This document shows positions 6,115 through 46,025 of a stretch of DNA of 64,000 bases, one piece after another. The notes under the pieces were generated by a model. The model saw only the letters and a list, made by a program, of their open reading frames with translations. It ran no database searches and was not told the DNA's origin. A program made the position numbers and the translations under genes. This DNA is from Rhodococcus sp. (in: high G+C Gram-positive bacteria). GTDB lineage: Bacteria; Actinomycetota; Actinomycetes; Mycobacteriales; Mycobacteriaceae. The DNA is taken from the NCBI GenBank assembly GCA_039206675.1, contig JBCEBZ010000111.1:756-64755 (forward strand), in the 5' to 3' direction. Numbering within the stretch: the first letter of the stretch is position 1; every line of letters starts with the position of its first letter.

Positions 6115-9100
6115 TTGGGGTCGGGACATGCAGCGGGTAGTAGCGGTGCTCCGGAAGGAGCGTTTCCGCTGTCGGCTGCGCAGCGTGGCATCTGGTTCGC
6201 ACAACACGCGATGGGCGACGTTCCCCTCACTATCGCCCAGTACATCGAGCTTCGCGGCGACATCGACCTCGATCTTCTGAGCGAGGCCACCGTCCGCACG
6301 GGCCGGGAATTCGGCTCCGGGTTCCTGCGCCTCGTCGAGGTCGAGGGCATGCCCCATCAGTACGTCGACAAGTCCCTCGACGACGCCGTCAACTACGTCG
6401 ACCTCCGCGGCGAGGACGACTCCGTCGACGCCGCCGAGAAGTGGATGCGGGCCAACTACAGCGCCCCCGTCGACCTTCTCGAGGACCGCCTCGTCGTGGT
6501 CTACCTGCTCCACGTCGGCGAGAACCACTACTTCTGGTTCTGCCGGATCCACCACATCGCGCTCGACGGCTTCGGCGCGATGGCGCTGATCGCGCGCATC
6601 GCCGAGATCTACACCGCACTGGTCGAGGGCACCGAGCCGCCGGCCTGCCGCGCCGAGGACCTGGTCCGGATCGTCGAAGACGAGCAGCGGTACCGCAACT
6701 CCGACCGGTTCGCGAAAGATCGCGAGTACTGGGCCGAGCGCACCGCGCACCTGCCCGAGGCGCCGAGCCTGGCCGGTCGTGCGGCGATGGTCGGCAAGTT
6801 CGCGCGGCTTTCCTCCGAAGCGCTGCCCGAGTCCACCGCCACCCTTCTCGACGAGGTGCTCGGTGGCAGCAACGCCAGTTCCGCGCCCGTCGTGGTGGCC
6901 GCGTTCGCCGCGTACCTGGCCCACATGACCGACCGGACGGATGTCGTCCTCAGCCTCCCGGTGTCGGCCCGCACCACCGCCACGCTGCGCCGCTCCGGCG
7001 GAATGGTGTCGAACATCGTTCCGCTCCGACTCCAGATCACCCCGGAGATGACCGTCCCCGAGCTGGTCAAGAGCGTGCAGATCGAACTCACCGGCGCCCT
7101 GCGCCGCCAGCGCTACCGGCACGAAGACATCCGCCGCGACGCCGGCGCGCCCCAGGGGCAGCGCGGCTTCTTCGGACCCTCGATCAACATCATGATGTTC
7201 CACAGCGAGATCAAGCTGGGGACGGTCACCGGACACCAGAACGTCCTCACCACCGGGCCGGTCGAGGACCTCTCGCTGAACATCTACCAGGGTGTGGCCG
7301 GCAGCAAGATCCACATCGACTTCGAGGCCAACCCCAACCTGTACTCCGCGGACGAGCTGGACCGCCACCACAGTCGCTTCTTCGACTTCTTCGAGCGCTT
7401 CCTCGGCGCCGGCGACGACGCCTCGGTGTCGGACCTGGCCACGATGAGCGGTGAGGAATACGAGCAGGTCGTGACGGGGTGGAACGGCGACGTCGTGGCC
7501 CCGCCCGCCGGCACCGTCGTCGATCTGTTCGACGCCCAGGTCGCGCGCACTCCCGACGCGACCGCACTCGTCTTCGAGGGCGAGGAGCTCACCTACGCCG
7601 AGTTCGACGCGCGGGTGAACCGCCTCGCCCGGACGCTGATCGGCCGCGGCGTGGGTCCGGAGACGAAGGTCGCCCTCGCGATCCGCCGCTCCCTCGACTC
7701 GATGGTCGCGATGTACGCCGTCGTCAAGGCGGGCGCCGCATACGTGCCCCTCGACCCCGACCATCCCGCCGAACGCACCGCGTACGTGCTGGAGAGCGCC
7801 CGCCCGCTGTGCATCCTCACGGTGGCGCGGGACGGGCTCGTCTTCCCCGCCGGTCACGACGTCCTGGAGATCGACGCCGTGGAGTCGAGCGACGTCCCGG
7901 CGGGCCCGATCCGCGACGAGGAGCGCAACGCCACCCTCCGGGCCACGAACCCGGCGTACGTCATCTACACGTCCGGGTCCACCGGACGTCCGAAGGGTGT
8001 GGCGGTGAGCCACGCCGCCGTCCTGAACCAGGTCACGTGGATCGCGTCGCGTTACGGCCTCGACGCGAACGACGTTGTGCTGCAGAAGACCCCGACGACA
8101 TTCGACGTGTCGGTGTGGGAACTGTTCGCCGCACTCGCCTCCGGGTCGCGCCTGGTGATCGCCGCGCCGGAGGGGCATCGCGACCCCGCCTATCTCGCCG
8201 ACGTGATCGCGCGCGAGAACGTCACGGCGACGTCGTTCGTCCCGTCGATGCTGTCGGTGTTCGTCTCCGAGGCCGACCGCGAACAACTCGTCAGCCTGCG
8301 CGTCGTTCTCGTTGCGGGAGAGGCGTTTCCGCCTGCGGTCGCAGCGGCGTTCCGGGCGAAGTCCGGCGCCGGGCTGCACAACCTGTACGGCCCCACCGAG
8401 TTCACCGTGCACGCCACCGCGGGTGAGGTGGATCGGGAGTCCGTCCACACGATCCCCATCGGCACCCCGGTGTGGAACACCGAGGCGTACGTGCTCGACG
8501 GCCACCTCCGGCCCGCACCCATCGGATCCGCGGGAGAGCTCTACCTCGCGGGCGCCCAGGTGGCCCGCGGCTACGAGGGCAGGCCGGAACTCACGGCGGA
8601 ACGCTTCGTGGCCAATCCTTTCGGCGCGGCGGGCACCCGCCTGTACCGCACCGGCGACCTCGTCAAGTGGCGCGTCGACGGCAGCATCGAGTACCTCGGC
8701 CGCACCGACTTCCAGGTGAAGGTGCGCGGCCTGCGGATCGAGCTGGGCGAGATCGAGTCCGCGATGTCCTCGTATCCCCATGTGGCGCAGTCGGTTGTGG
8801 TCGTGCACGACAGTTCCCTCGGGCAGCGGCTCGTCGGTTACGTCGTCCCCGAGTCCGGTTCGGTGGTGGACGTCGACGACCTGACGGCCCACGTCGGCCG
8901 TGCGGTGCCCTCGTACATGGTCCCCGATGCCGTCACGGTGCTCGCCGAGATGCCGGTCGGCGCGAGCGGCAAGCTCGACCGGAAGGCGCTGCCCGAACCC
9001 ACGTTCGCGGCGGAGTCCAGTGAGTACGTGGCGCCCCGCAGCACCATGGAGGAGTCGATCGCCGGCCTGTTCGCCGAGGTTCTCGGTCTGCCGCGCGTCA

Positions 9101-10790
9101 GTATCGGTGACTCGTTCTTCGCGCTCGGCGGCGACAGCATCGTCTCGATCCAGCTGGTGTCCCGCGCGAAGGAGGCCGGCGTCCTGTTCACGGCCCGGGA
9201 CGTCTTCGAACGCAAGACCGTTGCCTCGCTCGCCGAGGTCGCGAAGTCCGCATCCGAGTCGACGGTGCACGTCCTCGAGGAGCTGCCGGGCGCCGGAATC
9301 GGCACGATGCCGCTGACGCCGGTCGTGCACTGGATGACGGAGCTGGGTGGCGACTTCCACCGGTTCTCCCAGTCCATTCTCCTCGCGCTGCCGCCGAAGG
9401 TGGAGCGTGAGCGCCTGGTGCGCACGCTGGCGGCCGTCGTCGATCGCCACGACGCCCTGCGATCGTCGCTGCGGCGCAACGACTCTCCGGCCGGGTGGTC
9501 GCTGGAGGTCGCTCCGATCGGCTCGGTCGACGTCGACCGGCTCGTCGATCGCGTCGAGTTCACCGACGGTCCCGGCACCGCCACGTTCGAGGCGCTGGCA
9601 GCGCACGCCCTCGATCGCACGGTGGACAGGCTGGACCCGGCGACCGGCAGCGTGGTGCGGTTCGTCTGGTTCGCGCCCGCCGAGGACTCCGCCGAACCCG
9701 CGCCTCGGGACGCCGCGGACGACGACACCGCGGAGGCAGAGAGCGCCCCGCAGACGGGACGCCTGCTCGTCGTGATCCACCACCTCGCGGTGGACGGTGT
9801 GTCCTGGCGAGTGCTGGTGCCCGACTTCGCGTCCGCCTGGGGGCAGATCGCCGCCGGGGCCGACCCGTTGCTCCCGGCCGTCGGCACGTCGGTCCGCCGC
9901 TGGGCGCACGGCCTCGCCGACAACGCGCGCAGTGCCCGGCGTGTCGGCGAACTCGACTACTGGCGCACCACGCTGGACGGTGCGGACCCGCTGATCGGTT
10001 CACGGGCCCTCGACGGCCGCGACACGGTCTCGACCACCGGCCGGGTCCGACTGGAGGTCCCGGCGGACGTCACCGACGGTCTGCTGACCGACGTGCCGCG
10101 CGCCTTCCACGGTGGCGTGAACGACGGACTTCTCACCGCCCTCGCGCTCGCCGTCGCGGCGTGGCGCGCCGAACGCGGGTTCGCCGAGACTTCCACGCTC
10201 GTACACCTCGAAGGCCACGGCCGCGAGGAGACGGTGCTACCCGGCGCCGACCTGTCCCGCACGGTGGGCTGGTTCACCAGCATGTTCCCGGTCCGGTTGT
10301 CGGCGCCCGGCGTCGACGTCCGCGACGCCCTCGCCGGCGGTTCGGCCGCAGGTCAGGCCGTCAAGTCGGTCAAGGAACAACTCGCACGGGTACCCGAGCA
10401 CGGCATCGGCTACGGAATGCTGCGGTTCCTCAACGCCGAGACCCGCGCGGTTCTCGCGGCGCTGCCGAGCCCGCAGATCAGCTTCAACTACCTGGGCCGC
10501 GTGTCGGTCGGCGAGATTCCCGCCGCGTTCCGGGCAGCGGGCTGGGTCCCCGACACCGACACGATGGAGTTGACCGGCACCCGCAACAGCGAGATGCCGG
10601 TGCACTTCGCTCTCGACATCAACGCGATGATCGTGGACGTCGAAGGCGAACAACGGCTTTCGGCAACCGTCGACTTCCCGCAGGGTGTCCTCACGGACTC
10701 CGAGGTGGGCGAACTCGCCGGCCTGTGGACGCGCGCGCTCGAAGGGCTCGTCGAGTACACGAAGCGGCCGGGAGCCGGCGGCCGGACGCC
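6115..10790 (+). other. NRPS module 1: starter C - A1 - T1 - E1 (boundaries approximate)
   Basis: C1 motif [10 protein letters not shown] at about 6169. HHIALDG at 6550-6570. A1 core [10 protein letters not shown] at 7969-7998. T1 [13 protein letters not shown] at about 9112-9150. E1 [10 protein letters not shown] at 9778-9807, then [17 protein letters not shown] and FNYLGR. Confidence 0.85.
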
Positions 10791-45561: not shown

Positions 45562-46025
45562 CACGACTCGACATTCGCAGACGGCACGGAACCGTGCCGA
45601 ACCTGGTGGTTGCCGGCGTGGCTGTGGCTGCCGTGGTGGTTGCCGTTGTGGCGAGGGCCCTCGTCGGCGGCCTCCGCGTTGATCACGAGGTCCTCGAGCC
45701 GGCACGTCTCGGCGATGAGGAGGTCGTAGAGCGAATCGAAGAACTCGGGGGAGAGGGAATGGCTGTCGGCGTACTGACGCGCCCGTTCGTGGACGATGTG
45801 GATCCGGCCCGGCTGCATCATGGCGATGTGCTCGCGCCGCTTCAGTTCACCGATCCGCAGGCACACTTCCAAACGCTGCCGGACCGTTTCGAGCAGGGTC
45901 GCGTCGACGGCGTCGAGTTCCGCGCGCAGACCCTCGAGTGCGTGCTGCGCCGAGGCGTCAGAATGCTCTCCGGAATCGTCGCCGTTCCGCTGTTCTACGG
46001 AGAAGTACATAGTCGCCCCACTCAC
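45561..46025 (-). CDS. papB: AroQ-type chorismate-mutase-like protein (PapB-like 4-amino-4-deoxychorismate mutase) with a His-rich C-terminal tail
   Basis: CM_2 signature LRAELDAVDATLLETVRQRLEVCLRIGELKR..............ERARQYA. The stop TGA shares one nt with the papA ATG (TGATG). The start is either the GTG at 46025 or the ATG at 46010 (MYFSV). The C-terminal ~38 aa contain 7 His. Confidence 0.75.
   Translation of the reverse strand: MSGATMYFSVEQRNGDDSGEHSDASAQHALEGLRAELDAVDATLLETVRQRLEVCLRIGELKRREHIAMMQPGRIHIVHERARQYADSHSLSPEFFDSLYDLLIAETCRLEDLVINAEAADEGPRHNGNHHGSHSHAGNHQVRHGSVPSANVES

Follow-up and report, generated by a model that had tools for sequence, protein, structure and literature searches.

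In a 64,000-nucleotide stretch of Rhodococcus DNA (contig JBCEBZ010000111.1; hereafter the window), a single gene for a nine-module nonribosomal peptide synthetase (NRPS) lies beside papB-papA-papC-nox, an operon that combines a p-aminophenylalanine (PAPA) pathway with an arylamine N-oxygenase (nox). We favor, with a probability of about one half, the reading that the NRPS, with a secreted lipase as its accessory, and the pap-nox operon are neighboring units that can be separated in function. Separability is made the most likely interpretation by related genomes that hold the operon and no NRPS, by the selection acting on the operon, by the lipase gene as an internal control, by the lack of a Phe/Tyr-like specificity code in the NRPS, and by the differing NRPSs that partner the operon in other Rhodococcus clades. 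The GC content of the window (66-71%) is that of high-GC actinomycete DNA, and the nox protein is 92-97% identical to its counterparts in R. koreensis, R. opacus, R. jostii, and R. wratislaviensis, which places the source within the R. koreensis/opacus/jostii clade. An earlier reading of the same DNA, made from its letters and open reading frames (ORFs; the sequence-only reading), had described two convergent units 1.7 kb apart with only an ECF41 sigma factor/CMD gene pair between them, and this is the arrangement found, with the NRPS stop codon at 39930 and that of nox at 41616.

The comparison sample consisted of 80 species-level loci around N-oxygenase homologues, scored by tblastn, motif scans, and Pfam, with 49 informative Rhodococcus species genomes (16 opacus-like, 28 R. 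fascians-like, and 5 R. erythropolis-like); an NRPS was taken as co-localized when it lay within 10 kb of nox. All 16 opacus-like genomes carry the full papB-papA-papC-nox operon, and four of them, Rhodococcus sp. T7 (L001), sp. WS4 (L012), sp. NPDC049939 (L010), and R. marinonascens (L054), carry it intact and have no NRPS. Strain T7 retains the sigma factor gene and, of the NRPS, only 430 bp from its 3′ end, followed by eutBC, while in WS4 the NRPS is deleted and eutC stands directly after nox, with eutBC following as in T7. In NPDC049939 and R. marinonascens, the operon lies between a TetR gene and genes for an amidase, a methyltransferase (seen in NPDC049939), and an acetoacetate-CoA ligase. 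The four operon genes are free of stop codons in all four genomes, and their ratios of nonsynonymous to synonymous substitution (dN/dS, 0.03-0.25) are indistinguishable from those of NRPS-positive genomes. For the NRPS, the last 3000 codons compared with seven relatives gave a dN/dS of 0.09-0.24, with no stops and an alignment that reaches the last codons; both the NRPS and pap-nox are thus under purifying selection against relatives. The intact operon in four NRPS-less relatives means that pap-nox does not solely feed this NRPS. The most conserved operon gene is papA (dN/dS 0.03-0.08), whose product may double as a putative folate 4-amino-4-deoxychorismate (ADC) synthase. Two side observations belong to these loci. 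After the NRPS remnant of T7, positions 11001-13290 hold duplicated, scrambled papC and nox fragments ahead of the ethanolamine ammonia-lyase operon, which looks like a deletion or rearrangement scar or a draft-assembly artifact. The amidase gene of NPDC049939 (10989-13589) and R. marinonascens (14141-15205) is convergent to pap-nox, with an S-adenosylmethionine (SAM) methyltransferase gene added in the former, and the amidase or methyltransferase could process an aryl product.

The lipase gene behaves differently from the operon. It encodes a secreted class-2 lipase/alpha-beta hydrolase (46242-47177, plus strand; PF01674, GHSLGG motif, signal peptide MRISSATRALLCALAGIVMLCSAAPAAA followed by DP) and is full length in 12 of 12 NRPS-positive opacus-like genomes. 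In T7 the corresponding stretch (5400-6340) is split over two frames, with 80% nucleotide identity and 34 gaps against ~92% identity across the syntenic block, and in WS4 (5420-6210) it is split over three frames, with 73% identity and 46 gaps against ~88% across the block; the gene is absent from NPDC049939 and R. marinonascens. Because the lipase decays with the loss of the NRPS and the pap-nox genes that lie between them do not, the operon must have a role independent of this NRPS. Lipase homologues also adjoin the 3′ end of the NRPS in the R. fascians group. The decay of the gene in the two close relatives that lost the NRPS, against its integrity in all 12 NRPS-positive genomes, suggests that the enzyme works on the NRPS product, perhaps by processing it outside the cell or by conferring resistance. 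The lipase was also considered as a trans-acting thioesterase and rejected as such on account of its clear Sec signal peptide.

The identity of the operon is sound at the level of protein families. The product of papB (45561-46010, with an alternative GTG start at 46025; minus strand) is a CM_2 protein resembling 4-amino-4-deoxychorismate mutase; it scores 80.8 bits against TIGR01803 ('CM-like', cutoff 73.35), which we take to be the subfamily containing PapB and CmlD, and all true chorismate mutase equivalogs fall far below their cutoffs. PapA (43489-45561, minus strand) is a fused glutamine amidotransferase and ADC synthase with GATase, Anth_synt_I_N, and Chorismate_bind domains, and scores 363.6 bits against the pabB model TIGR00553 (cutoff 328.4). 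Starting from GTG, papC (42572-43492, minus strand) encodes a TyrA-like protein with PDH_N and PDH_C domains that scores below every prephenate dehydrogenase equivalog cutoff, as a PapC-like 4-amino-4-deoxyprephenate dehydrogenase might; the homologue in Rhodococcus sp. H-CA8f is reported to be 48% identical to CmlC (PMC8477407). The last gene, nox (41616-42575, minus strand), matches PF11583 (E 1.9e-49), which bears out its assignment in the sequence-only reading as an AurF/CmlI-type diiron N-oxygenase, and it is CmlI-like, with 263.6 bits to CmlI (5HYG) and 152.6 bits to AurF (3CHH), and lies below the NCBIfam AurF cutoff (173 vs 620). Aligned with CmlI and AurF, it agrees with both at residues in IEQ, DEQYH, AEIS, and HNRDEYCH, and we presume from the AurF structure which of these are the diiron ligands. 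The genes overlap at TGATG (papB stop/papA ATG), GTGA (papA stop/papC), and ATGA (papC stop/nox), which indicates translational coupling, so that the coupled operon proposed earlier is upheld by family models and overlapping codons alike.

The NRPS (6115-39930, plus strand) is an uninterrupted ORF of 11,271 amino acids (aa), and the 33.8-kb, nine-module, C-starter enzyme without a thioesterase (TE) domain that had been predicted is confirmed by that ORF, by Pfam, by a map of the core motifs, and by a domain identity matrix. Pfam counts nine AMP-binding, nine PP-binding, and 12 condensation-superfamily domains; every HHxxxD, A3-A10, and GGxS motif could be placed, and each thiolation (T) domain has its phosphopantetheine-attachment Ser. 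With condensation (C), adenylation (A), and epimerization (E) domains, the layout is Cs-A1-T-E, DCL-A2-T, LCL-A3-T to LCL-A7-T, LCL-A8-T-E, and DCL-A9-T-E, and the approximate nucleotide limits of the modules, all on the plus strand, are 6115-10749, 10750-13974, and 13975-17559 for modules 1 to 3, 17560-20754, 20755-24264, and 24265-27444 for modules 4 to 6, and 27445-30624, 30625-35259, and 35260-39930 for modules 7 to 9. Motif mapping and all-against-all identities divide the condensation-type domains into four classes: C3-C8 are LCL-like (53-59% mutual identity); C2 and C9, each directly after an E domain, are DCL-like (56%); the three E-type domains share 50-54%; and the starter domain Cs (6160-7464, plus strand; HHIALDG) is only 15-23% identical to the other 11. 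The best solved relatives of Cs are RzmA-Cs (7C1H/K/P, 234 bits), ObiF1 (195), CDA-C1 (184), and EntF (180), which place it in the starter clade that accepts acyl or aryl groups. The terminal domain (38400-39930, plus strand), which follows the last T domain (Ser10744), is a true E domain, with the motifs HHLVIDS, EGHGRE, RTVGWFT, and FNYIG and with 50-54% identity to E1 and E8 against 16-23% to the C domains. E domains thus follow A1, A8, and A9, an architecture that places D-residues at positions 1, 8, and 9, and the last of these, which had been called probable, is strengthened. The protein ends just past the terminal E domain, without the TPSD motif and linker that follow both internal E domains, and no cis release domain (TE, reductase (R), or terminal C) is present; the NRPS has no GxSxG TE motif. 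Two stubs of ~100-115 aa match the N-terminal region of A domains in blastp against the NRPS itself (E 1e-6 to 1e-17), one between C3 and A3 (aa ~3086-3185; 15370-15669, plus strand) and one before A5 (aa ~5331-5445; ~22105-22449, plus strand). They are 35% identical to each other, and in modules 3 and 5 the HH motif of the C domain and the A3 core motif lie 618 and 597 aa apart, compared with 469-492 aa elsewhere; the stubs have the look of remnants left behind when recombination exchanged an A domain.

The specificity codes of the A domains were read off from alignments with GrsA-PheA, whose ten code positions were confirmed to yield the published DAWTIAAICK. A1 and A5 share DVWSLALVHK, which, like DLWHLILVSK of A7, is presumably Ser/Thr-like; A2 (DALFVGGVMK) and A4 (DALFVGGIMK) are presumably Val/Ile-like; A8 (DAFFSALIWK) we take to select a small or aliphatic residue and A9 (DAWQFGLINK) a Gln-like one, all of these by comparison with reference codes and with low confidence. 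The code of A6 is DTGVVGAVIK, and that of A3, DQKNLGNVTK, describes a polar pocket that fits none of these reference codes. The sequence-only reading had taken it as the simplest case that one module incorporates p-amino- or p-nitro-phenylalanine; none of the nine A domains has a Phe/Tyr-type code and the operon outlives the NRPS, so this claim finds no support. By comparison, a Phe-like code, DAAITVAVCK, does occur in L063, a locus of an uncultured actinomycete that combines papA and nox with an NRPS. A3 stands apart from the other eight A domains (36-38% identity), with atypical core motifs and the stub upstream. Its subtype occurs in R. qingshengii NRPS fragments (44-46% identity), and a database search with A3 gave short NRPS fragments for the most part and no expected orthologue from the R. 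opacus group, the R. qingshengii fragments being without genomic context. An assignment of A3 to Gly through a match to LgrA (434 bits) was discarded, as that score summed two A domains and a shorter query scored the Val and Gly modules equally.

The partner NRPSs of the other clades are different assembly lines. In 12 of the 16 opacus-like genomes the NRPS has the same 3′ end, with two E-type domains in the last ~10 kb and DAFFSALIWK (DAFFCALIWK in L013) and DAWQFGLINK as its last two codes. The terminal A codes in other clades vary (DVWD[FL]ILVSK, DFWNLGLVHK, DIWHFAWVVK, and DALFVGGIMK), no terminal A domain there is a clear orthologue of an A domain of the window, and four of five NRPS ends examined in the fascians-like and erythropolis-like groups finish with T-TE, not T-E. 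No special module is common to the NRPS ends of the three clades, the terminal A domains being 49-57% identical to A1, A5, and A7 alike. The operon also varies. A representative R. fascians-like locus (L027) reads ribosomal-protein operon, DUF4442, papC, nox, ABC transporter, family 2 glycosyltransferase (GT2), lipase, NRPS; throughout this group (L014-L043) only papC-nox stands by the NRPS, papA and papB are not within 10 kb, and either these two genes lie elsewhere or papC-nox acts on a different substrate. An R. erythropolis-like locus (L047) reads DUF4442, papB-papA-papC-nox, GT2, ABC transporter, esterase, histidine phosphatase, NRPS. The hotdog-fold DUF4442 gene directly upstream of the pap genes (L027, 8532-9032; L047, 5899-6381; 69% identical) was not seen beside papB in the opacus group. 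Outside Rhodococcus, papA directly follows a nox homologue (at ~8.4 kb) in Streptomyces loci L058, L075, and L078, as in several other Streptomyces loci, and an adenylating enzyme with His at code position 235 (HSAWVGAGHK) is encoded nearby in these three. The enzyme suggests an aryl-acid activator and hence a different, probably nitrobenzoate-type, pathway.

The neighborhood itself has been described before, as the most abundant Rhodococcus NRPS family, GCF-1, in which conserved left and right arms flank an NRPS section that varies widely (Undabarrena et al., 2021, PMC8477407). The right arm consists of a lipase, an AurF-type oxygenase, TyrA, ADC synthase, and chorismate mutase, and is accompanied by an NRPS gene in 92% of strains; the chloramphenicol-like set of four genes occurs in subclades 2a and 4b (PMC8477407). 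Corynecins I-III were detected by liquid chromatography-high-resolution mass spectrometry (LC-HRMS) in a Rhodococcus that carries the cassette, and the right arm was proposed as their maker (PMC8477407). A corynecin I/II/III entry stands in MIBiG (PMC11433410), and antiSMASH labels the region '100% corynecin' in R. erythropolis-type genomes (PMC10819586, PMC13467173). Literature on an arylamine N-oxygenase or a nitrophenylalanine NRPS in Rhodococcus yielded nothing specific beyond the GCF-1 and corynecin papers. The novelty that the sequence-only reading had suggested therefore holds in part: the neighborhood is already published as GCF-1 and tentatively tied to corynecins, and the peptide product is uncharacterized. 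The window shows the GCF-1 layout, with a liu-type left arm, a C-starter NRPS, and the right arm, and is syntenic with 12 opacus-group genomes. With GCF-1, and with 'NRPS #5' of strain H-CA8f, it shares the carboxylase, acyl-CoA dehydrogenase, and CoA-ester lyase of the left arm, the C-starter NRPS, and the right arm. It differs in having one nine-module gene that ends in T-E, in place of the three genes and 17-21 modules of the R. erythropolis type, the examined ends of which are T-TE; in lacking the ABC transporter, glycosyltransferase, esterase, and DUF4442 genes; in the inserted ECF41/CMD pair; in an acetoacetate-CoA ligase instead of a CoA transferase; and in its chromosomal context.

In the arrangement that we favor, the NRPS (probably assisted by the secreted lipase) and papB-papA-papC-nox would be separately transcribed units. 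The NRPS would make an N-acylated nonapeptide, tentatively acyl-D-X1 (Ser/Thr-like)-aliphatic-polar-aliphatic-X1-?-Ser-like-D-small/aliphatic-D-Gln, a sequence that depends on reference codes and is of low confidence, and the peptide would be released by a trans-acting enzyme encoded elsewhere or by an unusual route. The operon would convert chorismate via ADC and 4-amino-4-deoxyprephenate to p-aminophenylpyruvate, as judged from family membership, and the CmlI-like diiron enzyme would oxidize the arylamine to a nitro group at some stage. The result would be a free p-amino/p-nitro-phenyl pool with an NRPS-independent use, for example in corynecin-type p-nitrophenylserinol amides of the kind reported from Rhodococcus; the four pap-nox genes are insufficient alone for such amides, and the remaining enzymes would be encoded elsewhere.

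A number of observations weigh against this separation. An NRPS lies within 10 kb of nox in ~90% of the 49 informative genomes (12 of 16 opacus-like, 27 of 28 fascians-like, and 5 of 5 erythropolis-like) and does so in two chromosomal contexts, beside a ribosomal-protein operon and beside the liu/TetR region. The co-conservation of the two units in related genomes, whose lack would have counted against the proposed link between them, is thus found, and it argues for a functional association of NRPS and pap; such persistence is what would be expected of a single cluster. In R. opacus 1CP (L004), which lacks the sigma and CMD genes, the stop codons of the NRPS and nox are only ~20 bp apart, and the lipase that covaries with the NRPS sits on the far side of the pap operon, so that the operon is physically embedded in the NRPS unit. 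No consumer of PAPA in the form of a CmlP-type A-T-R NRPS or a CmlA β-hydroxylase is encoded in the window, nor in the 10 kb around nox of those Rhodococcus loci that were inspected closely. The published link to corynecins depends solely on LC-HRMS dereplication. Finally, actinobacterial A-domain codes are poorly predictive, and the outlier A3 fits no substrate assignment.

If the two units nevertheless form one cluster, the aryl unit could enter as an N-cap that the starter C domain installs, which we regard as rather unlikely. PapABC and nox would supply p-nitro- or p-aminophenylpyruvate, a housekeeping 2-oxoacid dehydrogenase or ligase would turn it into an arylacetyl- or aroyl-CoA, and Cs would join this to D-residue 1, a route that needs no dedicated A domain, aminotransferase, ligase, or acyl carrier protein (ACP). 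Consistent with it, Cs clusters with C domains that accept acyl-CoA or aryl-carrier donors, among them ObiF1 from the nitroaryl pathway to obafluorin, none of the A domains seems to select an aromatic residue, the absence of fatty acyl-AMP ligase (FAAL) and ACP genes is compatible with a CoA donor, and the ~90% co-localization would be explained; yet the cluster holds no enzyme that makes the CoA thioester, Cs domains of the RzmA type normally use ordinary fatty acyl-CoAs so that an aryl donor is not required, pap-nox outlives the loss of the NRPS, and the R. fascians group has only papC-nox by the NRPS, with no papA or papB within 10 kb. The partner NRPSs of the R. erythropolis group, variable in other respects, are reported to have a C-starter (PMC8477407), and entry through the starter C domain therefore fits the data better than loading by an A domain. 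The latter, with p-amino- or p-nitro-L-Phe as an internal residue selected by A3 or by the repeated A1/A5, seems to us improbable. The divergence of A3, its atypical core motifs and polar pocket, the recombination stub upstream, and the occurrence of its subtype in R. qingshengii NRPS fragments would suit a special substrate, and the co-localization statistics favor a link. Against this stand the lack of any code of the Phe/Tyr type (A236, W/S239, T278, and small residues at the pocket bottom), when the comparator L063 does display one, the lack of a specialized module common to the three clades at their NRPS ends, and the persistence of the operon without an NRPS.

A further explanation, which partly overlaps with the others and which we think improbable, is that the NRPS is the first part of a longer, split assembly line or is released in trans, the nonapeptide being an intermediate that the T-E end passes on, as a D-peptidyl chain, either to the DCL domain of a separate protein or to a cyclase of the penicillin-binding protein (PBP) type encoded elsewhere. 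Subunits of the GrsA, TycA, and SrfA-A type end in E domains, and SurE-type systems end in T-E; the terminal domain here is a bona fide E domain, relatives have the same two E-type domains in the last ~10 kb, and no TE, R, or terminal C domain is found anywhere in the window. However, the protein ends after its E domain without the TPSD motif and acidic helix (the COM donor tail) that accompany the internal E domains, the 6 kb upstream and the 24 kb downstream hold no partner gene, and an N-acyl cap excludes head-to-tail cyclization of the SurE type. A fuller version of the capping route, in which pap-nox makes a nitroaryl acyl donor such as p-nitrophenylacetyl-CoA from p-nitrophenylpyruvate, Cs caps variable peptides with it, and the opacus-clade nonapeptide leaves by an undescribed release route, is likewise improbable; were it true, these would be the first nonribosomal peptides with a PAPA-derived nitroaryl cap.

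The choice between separate units and one cluster matters because nitroaromatic natural products are rare and the product of a widespread Rhodococcus cluster family is uncharacterized. Should the aryl unit enter the peptide, an unprecedented nitroaryl, lipopeptide-like class would come from a genus with few characterized metabolites, and an assembly line that lacks a TE and finishes with T-E would imply that release is out of the ordinary. Should the units be independent, as we favor, the 'corynecin (100%)' label of antiSMASH and MIBiG would be anchored in a four-gene precursor cassette, and genome-mining reports that cite it would need care. Orphan NRPS loci are common, the pairing of NRPS and pap-nox is on record already, and the genome comparisons made here weaken the suggested tie between them. 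Strains that naturally have pap and no NRPS (T7, WS4, R. marinonascens, and NPDC049939) offer a ready-made contrast for comparative metabolomics between the two readings.

Several characterized systems resemble parts of this locus. The chloramphenicol cluster of Streptomyces venezuelae shares the PAPA trio (CmlB/CmlD/CmlC) and the CmlI-type N-oxygenase, whereas the window lacks CmlP, CmlA, the halogenase, and acyl-activation genes and has the nonamodular C-starter NRPS alongside. Pristinamycin I biosynthesis (PapA/PapB/PapC/PapM) likewise has a dedicated papABC set, and there PAPA goes to a multimodular NRPS; in that case the amine is N-methylated, not oxidized, and a dedicated aromatic A domain exists of which none is recognizable here. 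In obafluorin biosynthesis, N-oxygenation takes place at the arylpyruvate stage of a PAPA-derived unit. The obafluorin system of Pseudomonas fluorescens contributes the ObiF1 C domain, at 195 bits among the closest solved relatives of Cs, and differs in product size and logic, the window having no thiamine diphosphate (ThDP) decarboxylase, threonine transaldolase, aryl-carrier protein, or dihydroxybenzoate (DHB) genes. RzmA lipoinitiation involves the closest solved homologue of Cs (234 bits) and needs no FAAL or ACP; the donor here could be fatty acyl or aryl-acyl. With the SurE/surugamide type the NRPS has in common the final T-E, the lack of a cis TE, and a D-configured C-terminal residue, but there is no PBP/β-lactamase-fold gene or SxxK motif here and the N-acyl cap is incompatible with head-to-tail cyclization.

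Between the convergent units lie a SigJ/ECF41-type ECF sigma factor gene with a C-terminal extension and an uncertain start (39983-40984, minus strand; Sigma70_r2/r4) and a gene for a CMD/AhpD-like protein, the partner of ECF41 sigma factors (41082-41567, plus strand; PF02627, TIGR00778). The sigma factor scores 376.7 bits against TIGR02957 (cutoff 323.25) and 302.1 bits against the SigJ model NF007214 (cutoff 271). Two divergent ECF41-promoter-like motifs (40957-41033) sit back to back in the 97-bp spacer of the pair, one on the minus strand that faces sigma (TGTCACA-N16-TGTC) and one on the plus strand that faces CMD (TGTCACA-N16-CATC); we take the consensus to be TGTCACA-N16-CGTC, and they are two of only three matches with one mismatch in 64 kb, where 2.4 are expected by chance. 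As the sigma-facing motif lies inside the longest sigma ORF, the true start of the gene is probably downstream of 40984. The sigma gene is found only in L001-L003 and is missing from the other opacus-like loci; no CMD homologue was detected in any Rhodococcus locus compared, L001-L003 included, and L002 aligns on both sides of the CMD gene but lacks window positions 41002-41596. This variable presence in relatives marks the sigma/CMD pair as a self-contained passenger outside the cluster, a self-regulating, lineage-specific insertion that is unrelated to it. The pair was also considered as a regulator of the cluster and set aside, since most relatives lack it and the promoter-like motifs are confined to the spacer of the pair, and neither ECF41 promoters nor shared regulatory repeats were found upstream of the NRPS and papB. 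GC-rich inverted repeats lie between the convergent genes at 39940-39980 and 41575-41600 (CCGTGGTGGGGA...TCCCACCACGG and GTCGTGGGC.GCCCACGA) and are probably bidirectional terminators.

Across 4875-47177, Pfam scans of the flanking ORFs and motif scans bear out the earlier list of missing accessory genes: no phosphopantetheinyl transferase (PPTase), type II TE, FAAL/ACP, or exporter gene is present there, no MbtH or PBP-type motif was found in the window, and the Pfam scans gave no PF00144-type gene and no SxxK motif was found. The left flank carries leucine-catabolism-type genes for a carboxylase alpha subunit, an acyl-CoA dehydrogenase, an HpcH-type lyase, and an acetoacetate-CoA ligase, and between these and the NRPS is a 1.2-kb stretch (4875-6114; GC lower, at ~65%) with no convincing ORF and only weak inverted repeats, which may be a long leader or a regulatory region; Rfam detected no RNA family in the window, this leader included. 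To the right of the lipase are genes for a GntR regulator, an acyl-CoA dehydrogenase, an aldehyde dehydrogenase, and a TetR-family protein with two TetR_N domains (51775-53376, minus strand), and then, at 55819-64000 (plus strand), genes for an enoyl-CoA hydratase and an acyl-CoA synthetase and a complete-looking Mce (MlaE/MlaD-type) lipid-uptake operon. This double-TetR and Mce region appears to be unrelated to the NRPS-pap finding.

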